In this document: one piece after another, positions 14,746-59,833 of the stretch
Layout: every line of letters starts with the position of its first letter
Position numbering within the stretch: position 1 is the stretch's first letter
Sequence record: PP627279.1
Direction: 5' to 3' (one strand)
DNA: 59,853 nt
From: Escherichia phage KS_A8
The notes under the pieces: model-generated
What the model was told of the DNA's origin: nothing
The model's database searches: none
What the model saw: only the letters and a program-made list of their open reading frames with translations
Translations under genes and position numbers: made by a program

Positions 14746-15154
14746 GTTGCCAGGCTGGCAGACACGTTTATTAACCACAGTAAAGGAGTTGTCATCGACT
14801 CCTTTTTCTTGGGGTGAAAATGATTGCTGCACCTTCGCGGCAAAATGTGTTGATGCGCAATACGGAACAAATATCTACGAACAAGTCGCTGGAAAATATA
14901 GTACAGAGCTTGGAAGTAAAAAGTTCACTATTGAAAGAGTTGGAACCGCTTACCTTCCATTGTTATTGGATACATATCTGAGCGAACGCGTTGACAAGAA
15001 CTATGCGCAAAGAGGCGATGTTGTTACATTTGAGGGAGCATTGGGCTTAACTGCTGGCATATTATGGACTGGATATGTATGGGCTATGGGTCCGAACGGT
15101 GTGGAAACATTCCCGCTTAATAAGATCAAAATTACGGATATTTGGAGGGTCTAA
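14720..15154 (+). CDS. tail assembly protein (gpK-like, putative)
   Basis: In-frame ATG at 14720 preceded by GGGGGAG; the track ORF from 14570 would overlap the upstream gene by 176 nt; contains NDCC cysteine motif. Confidence 0.35.
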   Translation: MRQGSPMSKLPGWQTRLLTTVKELSSTPFSWGENDCCTFAAKCVDAQYGTNIYEQVAGKYSTELGSKKFTIERVGTAYLPLLLDTYLSERVDKNYAQRGDVVTFEGALGLTAGILWTGYVWAMGPNGVETFPLNKIKITDIWRV

Positions 15155-18100
15155 TGCCACCAGCAATAATTGGAGCAGCGATAGCTTTAGGTGCGTCGGC
15201 TGCTGCTGCGGCTAGTATTATTTCGGCTACTACCGCTCTCGTTATCGGTATTGCTGCAACCGCGGCAGGTGCTCTTTTGACTAAGACACCAAATATGAAC
15301 TTTGATGCTTACAAGGGGCAGCAAGAGCGTAAACAGGTTCTGCGTGCGGCTACAGCGTCACGTTCTGTTGTATATGGCACGACCGTAGCGTCCGGACTAT
15401 TAGCATTTGCGGAGGAAGAAGCTGGAGATCAAGATGAAGGTGAATGGATGCATCTTGTTGTTGTTCTTGCTAGTCATAAATTGGAAGGTATTGAAACGAT
15501 TTGGTTGGGCGATGACGGAATTGATTGGTTTGGTGAAAACGCTACTTGGGAGTTTCATAACGACCGTCAGACTGTTGACCCATTCATGTTAAGACATTGT
15601 CCTTCCTGGAAGGAGGATATGATTGGCAAGGGTATTGCATGGCTACGTTTAAGCTTAAAGTTTGATGCTGAAAAATTCCCATCTGGTTTGCCAAACGTCA
15701 AGGTGTTGAAAAAGGGACGTAGAGTCTATGACCCACGTTCCGGTCAAACTGTCTTTAGCGATAACGCTGCTCTTGTTATTCTTGATTATTTCCGCACGTA
15801 TTTAAAGCGCAAGGACGAGAATATTAACTGGGACCAATTCAAGGAAGCTGCTAACATCTGCGATGAGTTTGTTACTAACGCAGATAACACTACGGAAAGA
15901 CGCTACCGCATTAACGGTGAGTTTGAAGTGGATGAAGCACCTGCCAAAATCCTTGATGCTATGCTTGAAGCTTGCGGTGGGGAACTAACCTATATTGGCG
16001 GCAAGCATGGTCTGTTAGTTGGCGCTTATTATGGTCCTGCTACCATGACTTTGGACGAAAGCTGCATTGCTGGGGATATTAAAATTATCCCTGAAACATC
16101 TTATAAAGAGCGCACCAATACCATTACAGGTACATTCGTTGACCCGAAGCAAACATACGCTGAAGCAGATTTTCCTCCAGTTGTGGTTAAGGAATGGGTG
16201 GAAAAAGATGGCGGCGAAATAACGCAGGACATGGATTTCCGCTTTGTTACAAGTGAATATCAAGCTCAACGTCTTGCTAATATTATTTTACGTCGTAAGC
16301 GTGTTGGTCGAACAATTGAAGTGCCGTGTAACATGAAGGGGTATAAATTCCGCCCGGGCATGTATGTCAACGTGACAATTTCAAATATTGGAATGAAAAA
16401 TGTTGAGATGCGCGTTACTAAATGGTCATTCGATCCTAAAGGTGGAATTAATCTTGTCCTTCGTCAAGACTTCCTGGAAATGTGGGACGATGCTATTGGT
16501 AAACCAATGGAGCGTCCGGATCTGGTAGACCTTCCGTCTGGTGCTATTGCTCAACCGCAAAACCTTCAGTATCAGGTATTGCAGATCAGCGATGTTGTGC
16601 AAGGTGTTTTAACATGGAGCAATATTGGACAGGTAGCGTATAACCGCGTAGCCGTGCGACAGGGAGGTACAACGGTTTGGACTGCACAAGTCCCTGGCCA
16701 AAACGTTCGCGTTACTGGGTTGCTGCGTGGCGCGTATACAGCGCATGTTCAAGCGGTAGCTTATAGCGGGGCAATATCACCGGAAGCGTATCTTGAATTT
16801 AATATTCAAGCGCCGCCTCCGCCAACGTCTATTGAAGTGCAACAGGGTTACTTTGCTATAAGTCTAATCCCTAAATCCGCAGATATTGCAAACGTTAGCA
16901 CGCAGTATGATTTTTGGACCTCTGGTGAAACAAGATTGTCTTCCGTGTCTACGGATATTGTGGAACGCGAAGCAACTCGTAAAGGTATGGGTACAACATG
17001 GACTTCAGAAGGTTTGAAGAATGACCACACTTATTACTGGTATGTTCGCACTATCAACGCTTTTGGATCGTCTGCATTTGTAGAGGTTGCTGCATTGTGC
17101 TTCACAACAGCTACAGACTTAATGCCACAGATTGATTCTGAGTTCAAGAAGACGGAGACTTATAAAGAGCTTACTGCTGAAATTACAGGTGTTAAAGACG
17201 GTGTTACCCAACTCAGCCAAACTGTAGTAGATACAGAAAAGCGTTTAAGCCAAAGTGTTAGCAACGTTCAGCAGAGCGTTATTACTTTGGACGGTGTTGT
17301 TCAGGATCAAGGCGTTACTATCAATGAACAAGGACAACTTATTGATGCACAGGGCCGATTGATTGATACGCAAGGTAAAACTATTCAGCAAGTTAGCGCA
17401 ACTGTACAGGAGACAAGTAAAGCAGTCGTAGATCTGGAAGGTAATGTTAACGCTCAATGGGGCGCTAAGGTACAGGTTGACAGTAAAGGACAAAAATACG
17501 TTGCTGGTATCCAGTTGGGTATGGAAGGGTCTGGTGGTGCTGTCCAATCTTACTTCATGGTAAGTGCCAACAACTTTGCCATCTATAACCCGACAAACAG
17601 CGTAGCAGAACTGGCATTTGCTGTTAAGAACGGTCAAGTGTTCATGAAGGCTGCGTTTATTGAAAATGGTACTATCGACAGCGCCAAAATTTCAAACCAG
17701 ATTCAGTCAACCAACTACGCTAACAATAGCGCGGGTTGGATGATTAACAAGAACGGTAGCGCTCAGTTTAACAACGTAACGATAAGGGGTACGGTATACG
17801 CTAACAACGGGTCTTTCACAGGTACAGTCAACGCCACAAGCGGTAAATTCAAGGGTACTGTGGAAGCTACCAGTTTTGTGGGTGATGTTGCGAATATGTG
17901 TGTCATTGCTGAGTCTGCAATACCAAACACACAAACTACAAGTTCAAGAACCTGGACAAAAACTTTCAAAGACTCATCCGGTTCAACATTATCTAAAGAC
18001 TTTGTGTTGTTATTAAGTTATAGTTTAACCGCATATACATCAAATCAGGCAAGTCGTATAATTGTGACTGCTAACATAGGTGGAACATCAATAACAAGGA

Positions 18101-18276
18101 GGATTGAGCGAGCTGCCAATGGGCCTGCCATGGATGTAACCATACCTTTAGCAGTGAAAGGAAAGACAGCGTCGAGTGTAACAATAAGCGTTAAGGAGGA
18201 ATATACGAACGTCTATGGGAGTTACTTGCGTCCGTCTGTAATATTAATGACTCGCGGAACTGGTAGTTGGTCGTAA
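15142..18276 (+). CDS. tail tip / host specificity protein (gpJ-like, with gpI-like hydrophobic N-terminus)
   Basis: 1044 aa, largest tail gene after the minor tail proteins; hydrophobic Ala/Ile-rich N-terminal segment then large beta-rich body. Confidence 0.65.
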   Translation: MEGLMPPAIIGAAIALGASAAAAASIISATTALVIGIAATAAGALLTKTPNMNFDAYKGQQERKQVLRAATASRSVVYGTTVASGLLAFAEEEAGDQDEGEWMHLVVVLASHKLEGIETIWLGDDGIDWFGENATWEFHNDRQTVDPFMLRHCPSWKEDMIGKGIAWLRLSLKFDAEKFPSGLPNVKVLKKGRRVYDPRSGQTVFSDNAALVILDYFRTYLKRKDENINWDQFKEAANICDEFVTNADNTTERRYRINGEFEVDEAPAKILDAMLEACGGELTYIGGKHGLLVGAYYGPATMTLDESCIAGDIKIIPETSYKERTNTITGTFVDPKQTYAEADFPPVVVKEWVEKDGGEITQDMDFRFVTSEYQAQRLANIILRRKRVGRTIEVPCNMKGYKFRPGMYVNVTISNIGMKNVEMRVTKWSFDPKGGINLVLRQDFLEMWDDAIGKPMERPDLVDLPSGAIAQPQNLQYQVLQISDVVQGVLTWSNIGQVAYNRVAVRQGGTTVWTAQVPGQNVRVTGLLRGAYTAHVQAVAYSGAISPEAYLEFNIQAPPPPTSIEVQQGYFAISLIPKSADIANVSTQYDFWTSGETRLSSVSTDIVEREATRKGMGTTWTSEGLKNDHTYYWYVRTINAFGSSAFVEVAALCFTTATDLMPQIDSEFKKTETYKELTAEITGVKDGVTQLSQTVVDTEKRLSQSVSNVQQSVITLDGVVQDQGVTINEQGQLIDAQGRLIDTQGKTIQQVSATVQETSKAVVDLEGNVNAQWGAKVQVDSKGQKYVAGIQLGMEGSGGAVQSYFMVSANNFAIYNPTNSVAELAFAVKNGQVFMKAAFIENGTIDSAKISNQIQSTNYANNSAGWMINKNGSAQFNNVTIRGTVYANNGSFTGTVNATSGKFKGTVEATSFVGDVANMCVIAESAIPNTQTTSSRTWTKTFKDSSGSTLSKDFVLLLSYSLTAYTSNQASRIIVTANIGGTSITRRIERAANGPAMDVTIPLAVKGKTASSVTISVKEEYTNVYGSYLRPSVILMTRGTGSWS

Positions 18277-18283
18277 TAAATAA

Positions 18284-18312
18284 TTAACCCCTCGTTTGAG
18301 GGGTTAATTTTC
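18284..18312. terminator. bidirectional intrinsic terminator between convergent genes
   Basis: TTAACCCCTC-GTTT-GAGGGGTTAA hairpin with flanking A/T runs. Confidence 0.5.
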
Positions 18313-18544
18313 AATAATCAATTACACAGTTTGAAGGTGAACCAATTCTTCGGTATTCATGATCAATCTCATGGCACCATTGTCCAGTCATTGGAAGCTT
18401 TTCGGTATCATAAATTAAAGAACCGTTACCATCACGGTCTAACGGTTTTGGAATAACGCCGGAATTAGGTTTACCCGTATTTAGACCGTTACCGCATGCA
18501 GTGAGGGATAAAGTTAATGCCAGCATAATTAAAGCGCGTTTCAT
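18311..18544 (-). CDS. outer-membrane lipoprotein, Llp/Cor-like superinfection exclusion candidate
   Basis: 77 aa; signal peptide MKRALIMLALTLSLTA followed by lipobox Cys17; two further Cys in the mature part; antisense between two tail fibre genes. Confidence 0.5.
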   Translation of the reverse strand: MKRALIMLALTLSLTACGNGLNTGKPNSGVIPKPLDRDGNGSLIYDTEKLPMTGQWCHEIDHEYRRIGSPSNCVIDY

Positions 18545-18614
18545 TGGGACTCCTTTGTGTTGTTGTCAAGGTTCAATTCTAATATACTTGTTGTGTTGAG
18601 TAAGTCAAATAAAT

Positions 18615-21600
18615 GTGGGAGATATTATGGCAACTCGTTTACGTGGTACTTTAGTTGATGGTTTAAATAAACCAATTGTCAACGCTACAGTTGCGCTTTT
18701 AGCAAAAGGGAATAGCTTATTGGTATTGTCCGGCAGTGAAGCTATCTTTAAAACAAGTGCAACCGGAACATATGATATTATAGTCCAAACGGGCTATTAC
18801 AAGGTTATTATCGGTCCGCAAGGCAGCGAGCCTTATAAAGCTGGTGAAATTGCCATTTACGCGGACAGTAAAGAAGGTACGCTGAATAACTATTTAACTT
18901 CCTGGGCACCGGAAGAGCTAACTCCGGAAGTCATTGCACAAGTTAAAGATTTAGTTTCACAAGCCGAGACAGCTAAGAACGCTTCAGCAGCATCCGCAAC
19001 TAAATCCGAACAGGAACGCGTTAAAGCAGAAGCTGCGGCACAGAATGCTGTAAACACTGCTAACGGTATGAAAGCTTCTATTGGTTTGACTACTGCACCA
19101 AGACATGTTGCAGATATTACAGTCAATCCGTCATCATTCTTGGGTTTTATACGGATTTTACGGTCTAGTACAGTAGGTTATCCGGATATTGCGTCCTCAG
19201 AAAACGTATTGGCCGGTTTTGTTTCCGCTATGGATGGAACCCCTGGATTTATAGGTGTTTTTGTTGGAGACATGACCGGGACTATATATAGCTATAGATG
19301 GATTAAGGACGTTGGCGTTACATGGTGGAAGCAGGTTAACTATTCTACTGTCAACAGATATACCCAGCTAAACGCAGAAACTAATTTTACAAACCAATTA
19401 GGCAATGCAAAACTCCTCATAGATAATAATAAAGTTTGGGGGGCATATGACAATGAAAATAAACGCTTCATACCTCTAGCAATAGCTCAAGGTGGTACAG
19501 GAGGAACTACTGACGCGGATGCTCGTACAAACTTAAGACTTGGTCCTAACGATACACCTCAATTCAGAAACCTTAATCTTGTTACAGTAGCAGACTCCGC
19601 ACAAGCGCCTTCCGGCATTGTGAGCGGTTATTTAAATAATAGCTCTGGAGTTCAAAGATGCCGCTACCGCATATATTCTGAAATAAGAGGTGACAATAAA
19701 GCGTGGTTAACCTTACACCTTCAATCAGACACAGCAACAAATAAATATGCTGGTCTAAGCGTTGATGGTAATTTTCAAATCAATGGAAATTTTATTGGTA
19801 ATGCTTTGCAGTTGTCAGACGCTCCAAATTCCAGGATTAATCTACAGTTAGATCGTTTTTATCAAAGTGCTAACGAAACGGTTATTTATACTCCGTCTCG
19901 TCAAGCATATATGACAATTTCTAATAACAAGACTTGGGGCGCTTATGACGCGGAAGCTCAAAACTTCATCCCTTTACCTATTAATAGGGGAGGGACTGGT
20001 GCTTTAACAATATCCGACGCTAAGACTAATCTTCAAATTCCGTCTGTAGGTGGGGGTGATTGGTTAACTTATAACGCTCCTCCTGGCGTGGAAGCTGGAA
20101 AGTATTATCCAGTTATCATCGATATGGCATACAGCTCTTTATATGCTTCTGGTGCTTTTATAGATATAAAGACACGTTCTGCCGCTGGTGACGATCCAAT
20201 GAACTGTTGCACTTTTAACGGATTTATTAGATGTGGTGGTTGGAGCGACCGAAAAGACGGCGGTTATGGTTACTTCAACAACTATGCAAGAAATGAAATT
20301 GCTATGAAATGTATTCTTTCTTCATCTAAAGATGCGGAAAGATACGTTGCAATATATGTTGAAGGTCGTGGTTTCCCTCTTCAATTGCGTGTCCCTGCAT
20401 TCTGTGAAGTAACAGTACCAACATCAAACTTTACTTATAAAAATACAACCTATGCGTGGGGTACAGCTAACCCTGCAACGGATTCTGTAGCTATAAACAC
20501 CTTATTTGATTTTTCATTAAACCGCGTTGGTTTTTACCAGGCCACAACAGAAGGTAATTATTATATCGGAAATGGGGAACGTATTGTTTTATCTAACGGA
20601 ATGTCTGTGGGTGAAGAGTTAAGTCTAGCCACACCTAAAGTGTCTTTCAGTGGAACCATTGCGGCTGGTAACGGTGTCATTGCAGATGGAACATCTGTAT
20701 CCAACGCTACTTTTTATAGCCGTTATCGTGTTGGTGACGTAATATATGGCAGCGAGTTTCGCGCAAGTGAAAATGCTGGTCAAATTATAGTCCGCGATCC
20801 AACGGGTGGGACTGCGCATCAATTCTTTAACTTCAATCTCAACGGGACATTCAGCGCCCCCGCTGGTTTGCTATCTTCTACTGGAGTAGATTGGAACGGT
20901 CAGATTAATACCGTCAATAAATTCTATGGGATTGCTGGACAAGTTAACACACCAGAAAACAATGTGGTTTATGGTGGTATACATGTTGGATTCAGCGGCA
21001 ACTATGCTTTCCAGATATGCGGAAGGAAAGGTAAATCCTTCTTCCGCACATTTGAAGCAGGAGTAGAAGGACAATGGCAACAATTAGTAACTAAAGGGAA
21101 CTACGGAGTTGGTCTAATTGGAACTTTTAAACCGGAAGATGGTTCAAGTGGTTTTTACACTGATTCCGATGGGGCAAATACTTGGTCGCCTGCTAACGGA
21201 GGGGGTTTTCAATCTTCGTATACTCAGCAGCGAATATTCCAATTTTGGATGACATCAAGCTCGCAGGGGTTTATTCGTTTTAATGATAGCGGTAACGCTC
21301 AAGCTTCTAAGACGGATAAACCTTGGACAACACTTCAAGCAGCTGGCACATCGGATATTAACTTCAAACGTGTGCACGGTGAAATGGACACAGATGTTGC
21401 GTTAGATAATATTAGCAAGCTTGAATTTGTTTATTTTAACTACTTGTCCGACGGTCCGGAGCGTGAAATCCGTAGGGGTATTATTGCTCAACAGGCCCAG
21501 GAAGTTGATCCTGAATATGTGCATAGCGCTGAAACATCCGGGAAAATGACTTTGGATTCTAACCCATTGTTATTGGATGCATTAGCTGCAATACAATCCC

Positions 21601-58051: not shown

Positions 58052-58312
58052 ATGACTACATTCAGTCACCTGATCCCACCTGCTTATCATAGTAAGGTAG
58101 TTGACCACGGGACGCATGTTGTAATTGGTGGCGAAATCTTTATCACAGATAACGAGGAAATCGCCATTGCAATTATTGACAGCACTCAGCATGACTTTAT
58201 GGTTATCCTGCAACACGAACCAGATAACTTCACTTTTTACTCCAGCTACGGGGTCGATAAAGGTGGAAAAAGCCTTGTTAGCTGGTACATTAGCGAGTGG
58301 TTTGACGGGTAA
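58052..58312 (+). CDS. hypothetical protein
   Basis: 86-aa ORF. Confidence 0.3.
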   Translation: MTTFSHLIPPAYHSKVVDHGTHVVIGGEIFITDNEEIAIAIIDSTQHDFMVILQHEPDNFTFYSSYGVDKGGKSLVSWYISEWFDG

Positions 58313-58394
58313 TCTCCTTAGATCAATTCTCCTTGCGCCGTATCAAGTTTCTCTGTTACCCTTGAGTGGTTCATGTCAAGCGGAGGAACTCGAT

Positions 58395-58832
58395 ATGGCA
58401 CTTCAACCTCGTGGTATTCGTAATAACAATCCAGGCAATATTCGCTGGGGTGATAATTGGCAGGGCTTAGTTCCTGCTGATAAGCGAACCGATAAATCTT
58501 TTGCTCAATTCACGCAACCGATTTACGGCATTCGTGCGCTAGCGAAAATCCTGACAAACTACACCAAACGTGAAGGCTTGCCCAATGTGGGTAAGAAAAA
58601 CATCGACACTGTACGTGAAATTATCGCTCGCTGGGCACCGCCTAACGAAAACGATACGGAAGCGTATATTCGCTCTGTTGCCAAAGCAATTGGTGTTCAA
58701 CCTAACGATCCAATTAATGTCTTCGACAAGGCAATTATGTCAGGATTGGTGAAAGCAATCATTCGTCATGAAAATGGCATGATGCCCTATACCGATGACG
58801 TAATTAACCGCGCTATTGCAATGGTACTTTAA
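58395..58832 (+). CDS. conserved hypothetical protein, candidate endolysin by position
   Basis: Start set at ATG 58395 (RBS GGAGGAA); 145 aa with RGIRNNNPGNIRWG motif; directly upstream of holin and spanins. No catalytic motif recognised. Confidence 0.3.
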   Translation: MALQPRGIRNNNPGNIRWGDNWQGLVPADKRTDKSFAQFTQPIYGIRALAKILTNYTKREGLPNVGKKNIDTVREIIARWAPPNENDTEAYIRSVAKAIGVQPNDPINVFDKAIMSGLVKAIIRHENGMMPYTDDVINRAIAMVL

Positions 58833-58868: not shown

Positions 58869-59213
58869 ATGTTCAATTCACCCAACGAACATTGGGCAGT
58901 TCTAGCGGGGTTTGCGTTTATCTCCCTCATTGGGGGAGCTCTCGGTTATGTCATGCGTACAATAGACGCTGGTAAGAAAGTACGGGCAAGTATTGCGTTT
59001 CTTGAAGGCTTATCCGCCGCTTTCTTTGGCGTTATAATGTATGCGATCTACAGGGAGTTTAACATCAGCCTTTGGTTCGCTTTTGGCCTTGCTGGCCTAT
59101 TTGCTTGGGCAGGTTCACGTGCTACGCTAAAAGCCCTAACGTCGCTTATAGCTTCACGGACAGGGATCAAACTCGATTCAGGGGACTGCAAACATGAAAA
59201 CGATTCTAAATAA
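58869..59213 (+). CDS. holin (putative)
   Basis: 114 aa with three hydrophobic helices and charged C-terminus; immediately upstream of Rz/Rz1. Confidence 0.5.
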   Translation: MFNSPNEHWAVLAGFAFISLIGGALGYVMRTIDAGKKVRASIAFLEGLSAAFFGVIMYAIYREFNISLWFAFGLAGLFAWAGSRATLKALTSLIASRTGIKLDSGDCKHENDSK

Positions 59214-59670
59214 CTTCTTCGGTTTTATAAAAACTAAACCGCGTCTGTTTATCGAGTATTTGATGATCGGCGCGGTTGTGTTTTTATGCGGGGTGGCTGC
59301 ATACTTGTGGTCACAGAACGAGCTCAGCAAAACTAATTTAAATCATGCTGAGCAAAGACTAACCGTTGTAGAACGGGACAATGCAAAGCTGGGCGAAGCT
59401 GTTGTATTTCTTGCATCCCAACGGGAGAAGGATACTGAATCCTATCGAAAATTGGCTTCAGCAATTGAAAGTGAGCAACATAACCACAGGTTGCTTCAGG
59501 ACAAATTAAAAGCACTGGAGAAAAGCAATGCCGACGTCAAAGCTTATCTTAATGAGCGTGTTCCTGATGATTTGCGCAGGCTGCTCGACGGAGATACAAC
59601 CTCCACCACCGCCGCAGATAGTGAAGATAAAACTTCCGGCCCATCTGTTGGTAGAATGTCGGGAAGTTGA
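59194..59670 (+). CDS. Rz: i-spanin (Rz-like)
   Basis: 158 aa; N-terminal transmembrane helix, coiled-coil periplasmic domain; contains the Rz1 start in another frame. Confidence 0.6.
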   Translation: MKTILNNFFGFIKTKPRLFIEYLMIGAVVFLCGVAAYLWSQNELSKTNLNHAEQRLTVVERDNAKLGEAVVFLASQREKDTESYRKLASAIESEQHNHRLLQDKLKALEKSNADVKAYLNERVPDDLRRLLDGDTTSTTAADSEDKTSGPSVGRMSGS

Positions 59671-59833
59671 TAAATATCCTTTGGTTTATACAAGGGACAT
59701 TATCCAACGTTTGCAGGATACAGAAACAGCTCTGACTGAATGTAAACTGAGGGTTAAGGAAATCATACGCTATGAAGCTGAAAATGTTTCGCTTGATTTT
59801 GTAGGATCAAGCAATTATATTCAGCCTAAATAG
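59528..59833 (+). CDS. Rz1: o-spanin (Rz1-like lipoprotein)
   Basis: Signal peptide ending in lipobox-like ICAGC followed by proline-rich STEIQPPPPPQ; overlaps the Rz 3' end. Confidence 0.55.
   Translation: MPTSKLILMSVFLMICAGCSTEIQPPPPPQIVKIKLPAHLLVECREVDKYPLVYTRDIIQRLQDTETALTECKLRVKEIIRYEAENVSLDFVGSSNYIQPK

Follow-up and report, generated by a model that had tools for sequence, protein, structure and literature searches.

A lipoprotein gene antisense to the tail fibre genes of a Seuratvirus phage, probably encoding a superinfection-exclusion factor specific for LamB

Escherichia phage KS_A8 (PP627279.1; the whole stretch of 59,853 nucleotides that was analysed is referred to as the window) raises the question of what a small lipoprotein gene is doing between two tail fibre genes, on the strand opposite to theirs. 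An earlier inspection of the letters alone (the sequence-only reading) had described at this place a 77-aa ORF antisense to the neighbouring late genes, with a lipoprotein signal followed by Cys17 and a mature part of about 60 residues holding two Cys, and had proposed that the product blocks the receptor of the phage itself. The description of the gene holds in full. Its coordinates and strand are those of Table 1, it lies between the gpJ-like fibre and the lateral tail fibre, both encoded on the plus strand, and, judging from the collinearity with the annotated genome of phage CAjan, it is the sole minus-strand gene in a plus-strand structural block of ~24 kb. The translation, MKRALIMLALTLSLTACGNGLNTGKPNSGVIPKPLDRDGNGSLIYDTEKLPMTGQWCHEIDHEYRRIGSPSNCVIDY, comprises 77 aa and starts with MKRALIMLALTLSLTA followed by CGNG..., with a lipobox L-T-A-C that includes Cys17 and two further Cys (C57 and C73) in the 61 aa of the mature part. 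The starts of the two flanking genes in the table are those assigned mechanically (TTG at 15142 for gpJ and GTG at 18615 for the lateral fibre), while in WildeMaa and CAjan the annotated starts are the ATG codons corresponding to 15154 (12 nt downstream) and 18627, which are more likely to be the true ones.

Table 1. Positions in the window of the lipoprotein gene, its putative expression signals, the flanking tail genes and the lysis cassette
Feature	Position	Strand	Remarks
Lipoprotein gene	18311..18544	-	77 codons plus stop
Predicted signal peptide	18497..18544	-	aa 1-16, MKRALIMLALTLSLTA; ends with L-T-A before Cys17
Predicted mature lipoprotein	18314..18496	-	61 aa, 6.7 kDa, pI 5.5, hydrophilic
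Shine-Dalgarno sequence AAGGAG	18550..18555	-	5 nt upstream of ATG
Sigma-70-like promoter	18581..18608	-	-35 TTGACT (18608..18603), 16-nt spacer, -10 TATATT (18586..18581); 10/12 matches
12-bp GC-rich hairpin	18282..18309		between the convergent gpJ and lipoprotein genes; dG -18.2 kcal/mol, z -5.5
gpJ-like central tail fibre / tail tip protein	15142..18276	+	Pfam Phage_Tail_Tip and Ig_J domains
gpJ C-terminal 125 aa (type 1)	17899..18273	+	presumed LamB-binding domain
Lateral tail fibre, 1034 aa	18615..21719	+	phage_tail_N and Peptidase_S74 chaperone domain; divergent from the lipoprotein gene
Endolysin-like ORF	within 58125..58832		lysis cassette
Holin-like ORF	58869..59213		lysis cassette
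LysB-like i-spanin-type ORF	59194..59670		lysis cassette
o-spanin candidate, proline-rich lipoprotein ORF, 101 aa	59528..59833		signal peptide, ICAG/C, PPPPPQ; overlaps the LysB-like ORF

A lipobox conforming to the PROSITE-type rule is present in 3 of the 411 ORFs of the window, compared with 1.5 +/- 1.2 in shuffled sequence. Taken alone, it is not significant beyond chance, and the case for a gene therefore rests on other evidence. The protein gives a full-length match to PHROG 12984, described as 'lipoprotein' (E 2.4e-55), and homologues occur in 43 phage records and in 29 protein clusters out of 5.8 billion. In the homologue alignment the signal peptide is variable, while Cys17 (in 27 sequences), C57, C73 and the motifs PNSGV, TE, GQWC and NC are invariant; the conserved motifs of the mature part are PNSGV, DTEKLP.TGQWC and SPSNC. 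The dN/dS ratio of the mature part amounts to 0.03-0.07 at a dS of about 1 in the comparisons with KurtStettler, 9g and STP-SP5, and that of the signal peptide to about 0.3 in those with KurtStettler and 9g, ratios that place the mature part under strong purifying selection. The possibility that the ORF is no gene draws on the lipobox pattern, for which shuffled windows give a chance count of about 1.5, but it conflicts with such dN/dS values at saturating dS, with the invariant Cys, and with a promoter, a Shine-Dalgarno site and a terminator conserved across lineages. It was rejected on this conservation pattern, is left with a negligible probability, and the ORF is confirmed as a real gene.

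The family to which the protein belongs is small. An exhaustive profile search of 1.84 billion representatives returned four matches, three of them true family members, so that the Lpp010 / PHROG 12984 family comprises three true clusters at 50% identity among these representatives. The fourth match is P0031, a 4467-aa adhesin with CshA/SdrD repeats, which is hit nine times at profile positions 32-63 (E 1.6e-7) and only by the D-R-D-G-N-G-S-L...D-T-E stretch of the lipoprotein; homology was rejected in this case, and the similarity was judged to be a calcium-binding-like D-x-D-G motif or a compositional effect. Searches of the Pfam, PADLOC and NCBIfam libraries yielded for the lipoprotein matches at the level of the signal peptide at most, and a search of positions 18000..18900 against Rfam found no RNA family.

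The gene seems to be equipped with expression signals of its own. In addition to the promoter-like site and the Shine-Dalgarno sequence upstream, a hairpin is located directly after the stop codon, in a tail-to-tail position shared with gpJ. This hairpin is the predicted terminator of the lipoprotein transcript and probably terminates gpJ as well. Copies of the gene from Seuratvirus, Nonagvirus and prophages of E. coli keep the promoter-like site, the Shine-Dalgarno sequence and the hairpin at equivalent positions, and by these signals the lipoprotein gene would be an autonomous transcription unit.

As for the protein, Cys1 of the mature form is the predicted lipid attachment site. The residue at +2 is Gly, and in 27 homologues it is G, A, S or T, but never Asp; according to the established +2 rule for lipoprotein sorting, Gly at this position predicts an outer-membrane destination. 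Cys41 and Cys57 (mature numbering), both conserved and both located in the C-terminal third, are probably joined by a disulfide. Confidence is low in the AlphaFold2 models (pLDDT 63.5 with the full-length alignment and 56.7 with the mature-only alignment), with the lowest values at the first 13 or so mature residues, a segment that in the models looks like a flexible tether. Foldseek found for the weak AlphaFold2 model 0 matches in the PDB at E <= 0.001, and phmmer found 0 matches among PDB sequences at E <= 10.

The 14-24 kb region of the window shows about 97% nucleotide identity to RCIP0359 and OddieOddie, the closest relatives, and 91-94% identity to slur01, CAjan and SeppeHuegi. On account of this identity to Seuratvirus phages, the window can be taken as the nearly complete genome of a virulent member of Seuratvirus, a genus of the subfamily Queuovirinae. 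A 7-deazaguanine gene cluster is typical of DNA modification in the Queuovirinae; in CAjan a cluster of the 7-deazaguanine / queuosine type (queuine tRNA-ribosyltransferase-like, GTP cyclohydrolase, QueD, QueC, QueE and a preQ0 transporter) is annotated on the minus strand, and by collinearity its counterpart in the window would lie at about 28.8-34.5 kb.

Proteins identical to that of the window are encoded by WildeMaa (BASEL Bas23), Skure, SLUR25/63, KS_W4 and RCIP0359, and the series formed by WildeMaa, Skure, SLUR25, CAjan gp19, Seurat and 9g ORF69 is 91-100% identical to it, with matching coordinates in collinear genomes. No difference of substance separates these Seuratvirus and Nonagvirus lipoproteins from the window protein, and the gene is annotated in such relatives as 'lipoprotein' or 'hypothetical protein'. 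It is present in virulent phages of the genera Seuratvirus, Nonagvirus and Dhillonvirus, and in five phage lineages as well as in E. coli prophages it follows gpJ immediately, in convergent orientation. In Shigella phage EP23 (L008:3986-4228) and in vB_EcoS_PNS1, tblastn revealed copies with about 71-72% identity that are unannotated in RefSeq.

A role for this gene has already been put forward: the identical protein of Bas23 was named a likely superinfection-exclusion lipoprotein (PMC9586334, PNAS 2022). With that proposal of 2022 and the test of a homologue in 2025, the finding is correct and already known. The homologue is Lpp010 (mEp010_116, gp116), which exhibits 57% identity to the window protein over the full length and 64% in the mature part (tblastn E 3e-22), and whose residues K2, A11, Q38 and V40 agree with what has been published on the 'type-C' lipoprotein Lpp010. 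Both proteins hold the lipobox Cys, the two other Cys and the motifs PNSGVIP, DTEKLP.TGQWC and SPSNC, and this likeness places the window protein in the small Lpp010 / PHROG 12984 family. The arrangement of the genes is also alike, since that of Lpp010 is convergent with J and lies upstream of a tail fibre gene, with a terminator between J and mEp010_116. However, Lpp010 is carried by a temperate phage and the window protein by a virulent Seuratvirus, the mature N-terminal tethers differ by a 3-residue indel, and the gpJ end of mEp010 is of another subtype, with 33% identity to that of the window.

In spot tests, cells expressing Lpp010 from a plasmid excluded four phages that depend on LamB, namely mEp010, mEp044, mEp554 and lambda (PMC11893012, 2025, Negrete-Mendez et al.). 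The phage mEp013, also LamB-dependent, escapes exclusion by Lpp010, although the sole difference between its own lipoprotein and Lpp010 is at residue 2 of the signal peptide (PMC11893012); the escape may map to the gpJ end of mEp013.

The receptors used by the carriers point in the same direction. The terminal receptors of the BASEL phages have been set by knock-outs, and among the small siphoviruses Bas01-25 LamB was assigned to Bas21-24 only (PMC8594841, S5 Table). Lipoprotein matches in the BASEL genomes are found in exactly Bas21-24 and in 0 of the 21 other small siphoviruses, and the gene is absent from every FhuA-dependent BASEL phage. These four carriers are all close relatives within Seuratvirus and hence not independent observations. 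The temperate mEpimmI phages mEp010, mEp013, mEp044 and mEp554, which require LamB (PMC11893012), each encode a homologue and constitute a lineage separate from the BASEL carriers; with them, 8 of the 8 tested carriers depend on LamB. The proposal that the protein acts on the receptor of its own phage is supported by this dependence, with the amendment that the receptor is most probably LamB and not FhuA, the target of Llp and Cor.

WildeMaa, which needs LamB, has a lipoprotein identical to that of the window and a gpJ end 97% identical, and GottfriedDienst and SeppeHuegi, which need LamB too, have values of 97-99% for the lipoprotein and 98-99% for the gpJ end. VogelGryff (Bas25), a Seuratvirus that uses LptD, is without the lipoprotein gene and has a shorter gpJ devoid of the C-terminal domain. 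According to the BASEL papers, the slot downstream of gpJ holds receptor-binding and exclusion genes. In VogelGryff this slot (L016:3328-4293) is occupied by a different antisense ORF of 321 aa with no lipoprotein signal at its start, and no small exclusion lipoprotein is annotated in the slot after gpJ.

The last 125 aa of the window gpJ are found in 31 phage records, and 31 of these 31 have the lipoprotein as well. The gpJ ends of the carriers fall into three subtypes with 29-38% mutual identity over 160 aa (E 1e-14 to 1e-25): type 1 in the window, WildeMaa, EP23 and the MS 115-1 prophage, type 2 in KurtStettler, 9g, mEp010 and the Nissle prophage, and type 3 in AS5. The gpJ end of HK97 falls into type 2, with 92% identity to KurtStettler over the last 125 aa, and that of lambda bears no detectable similarity to the gpJ ends of the carriers. 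The mature lipoproteins of MS 115-1, Nissle, KurtStettler and 9g are 100%, 98% (98.4%), 97% and 93% identical to that of the window, whereas the corresponding gpJ ends are 92%, 35%, 32% and 35% identical. This comparison argues that the sequence of the lipoprotein tracks the receptor and does not co-diverge with the gpJ end. Combined with the activity of Lpp010 against lambda, it favours the host receptor, and not the phage protein, as the partner of the lipoprotein.

HK97 adsorbs to LamB (PMC6832061) and contains no lipoprotein gene in the 207-nt gap between J and stf (L015:3879-4085), which represents a clean insertion/deletion with respect to the Nissle prophage. Being a LamB user without the gene, HK97 indicates that the cassette is accessory and is needed neither for gpJ assembly nor for building the virion. 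The gap includes about 125 nt with a long inverted repeat, GGGAAGGTGCGAATAAGT ... ACTTATTCGCACCTTCC, between flanks common to the Nissle prophage, and this segment may be the scar of a loss or replacement of the cassette.

In E. coli, the gene was found in 34 of 5426 complete genomes, always on the chromosome. The two copies examined, those of Nissle 1917 (L011:7001-7234, corresponding to NZ_CP007799.1 2039441..2039674) and MS 115-1 (L012:6001-6234), are both located in lambdoid prophages and convergent with a J-like tail tip gene. By all these comparisons, one cassette is common to virulent phages and to temperate phages and gut prophages, and it moves with a family of gpJ ends. Some chromosomal copies (P0021, P0019 and P0029) are frameshifted or truncated, such as P0021, which has 74 aa, occurs in 29 contigs and diverges after residue 54, and these copies suggest gene decay in some prophages. 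The copies of Nissle 1917 and MS 115-1 could contribute to resistance against lambda-like or other LamB phages. A literature search for a connection between Nissle 1917, lambda and this lipoprotein found no such link, another on phage 9g and this gene gave nothing useful, and a paper on the prophage sRNA svsR (PMC12803456) proved to be unrelated to the lipoprotein gene.

The sequence-only reading had compared the protein to T5 Llp and to Cor of T1-like phages. T5 Llp, a small lipoprotein of the outer membrane that has two additional Cys, is also made as a 77-aa precursor with a lipobox and is encoded next to a receptor-binding gene, with separate transcription and an equivalent proposed role; nevertheless, the spacing of the Cys differs, and its target FhuA is a TonB-dependent transporter with a plug and allostery. 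Cor (T1, phi80, N15 and HK022) is likewise a small lipoprotein with an exclusion function encoded antisense and downstream of the gpJ module, but its target is FhuA, while the carriers of the window family depend on LamB. The precursors of Llp, Cor and the window protein have 75-77 aa and two extra Cys each, and all three genes adjoin a receptor-binding gene and are transcribed separately from it. The alignment with both proteins that had been recommended as a check gave a negative answer, as the mature parts do not align: hhalign paired the window protein with T5 Llp over 20 signal-peptide columns only, and with Cor over the signal peptide only. The NCBIfam Cor model NF047972 does not match the window protein at E <= 1, although T1 Cor reaches 55.8 bits with it (cut-off 31). 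Homology to Cor or Llp was consequently rejected. An exclusion role like theirs remains favoured by size, lipidation, gene placement and the exclusion exerted by the homologue Lpp010, and the part of the comparison that fails is any similarity in mature sequence.

A further analogue is Rtp45 of phage Rtp (PDB 9RPS), a small superinfection-exclusion lipoprotein directed at LptDE and encoded in the slot downstream of gpJ in small siphophages. It shows no sequence match to the window protein and no fold match to the weak model. The receptors differ (LptD for Rtp45 and LamB here), but neither of them is a TonB-dependent transporter. Rtp45 pushes a hairpin up the lumen of the LptD barrel and displaces an extracellular loop (PMC12685063).

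Taken together, these data make it probable that the protein is a superinfection-exclusion ('lytic conversion') lipoprotein specific for the terminal receptor of the phage, the maltoporin LamB. In the proposed pathway, host RNA polymerase would start at the sigma-70-type promoter of the gene itself, so that transcription does not depend on the tail operon, and the precursor would be exported, lipidated at Cys17, cleaved by signal peptidase II and sorted to the outer membrane in a Lol-dependent manner. The mature part, predicted to combine a flexible tether rich in Gly, Asn and Pro with a small C-terminal portion that contains the two conserved Cys, would bind LamB from the periplasmic side and make it unusable for tail tips. 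We infer that the protein contacts LamB itself and acts at the adsorption step. LamB-dependent phages, including this one, would then no longer be taken up or inactivated by the infected cell or, after lysis, by its debris and vesicles; such a sparing of progeny from adsorption to debris has been described for T5 Llp.

The block might instead occur after adsorption, with LamB still binding the phage while the opening of the tail tip or the passage of the tape measure protein or of DNA across the periplasm is impeded. The functional data consist of spot assays, which fit this possibility equally well, the escape of mEp013 in spite of its dependence on LamB would be easier to understand if a phage component were also involved, and no allosteric connection between the periplasmic side of LamB and its surface is known. 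Yet the sequence of the mature part goes with the receptor rather than with the gpJ end, exclusion affects lambda and unrelated mEp phages, and the analogues solved structurally, Llp-FhuA and Rtp45-LptDE, target the receptor and keep the receptor-binding protein from attaching, and a block at so late a step is considered unlikely. A benefit to the host, in the manner of a 'moron' that serves maltodextrin uptake, the envelope or serum resistance (like Bor of lambda) and excludes phages as a side effect, would agree with a mature protein 98-100% identical in the lambdoid prophages that commensal E. coli strains such as Nissle 1917 carry, and with the presence of an own promoter and terminator, as in classic morons. 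Such a role is rated as very improbable because the gene is equally conserved in the strictly virulent Seuratvirus, Nonagvirus and Dhillonvirus, where a long-term benefit to the host is meaningless; it is also at odds with the tight linkage to the gpJ ends of LamB users, and the protein matches neither the Bor family nor any other Pfam family.

Small outer-membrane lipoproteins can also be encountered in lysis, as outer-membrane spanins (Rz1-like) or other lysis lipoproteins, and the window protein gives a weak match to a PHROG of Rz-like spanins (E 0.0058), restricted to the signal peptide. However, a complete lysis cassette is present elsewhere in the window, 40 kb away from this gene, which sits between tail genes and is linked to gpJ, and the phenotype of the homologue is exclusion. 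A role as spanin was rejected because of this separate cassette, whose LysB-like and o-spanin candidate ORFs occupy 59194..59833, and its probability is next to nil.

Exclusion at the level of LamB is therefore the reading that we retain, and its preferred physical detail is, by analogy with Rtp45 in LptD and as a matter of speculation, that the protein reaches into the channel or plugs it from the periplasm, with a disturbance of the extracellular loops as the effect. A plug domain is lacking in LamB and allostery is not known for it (PMC9586334), for which reason the mechanism of FhuA-Llp cannot simply be transferred and Rtp45 would be the closer physical model. That a partly unstructured lipoprotein of 61 residues enters or plugs trimeric LamB from the periplasm, and in this way blocks every LamB phage whatever its RBD and also shuts maltodextrin uptake, is a tentative proposal to which we assign somewhat less than an even chance. 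If true, plugging of LamB would be a new structural way of closing a receptor. The gene in any case marks a mechanistic question, namely how a periplasm-anchored mini-lipoprotein would disable LamB, a porin without a plug. At a more practical level, the lipoprotein together with the gpJ end can be used as a sequence marker that predicts the use of LamB, and the cassette should cross-protect against all LamB phages, which is relevant to the design of phage cocktails and to the phage resistance of probiotic strains.
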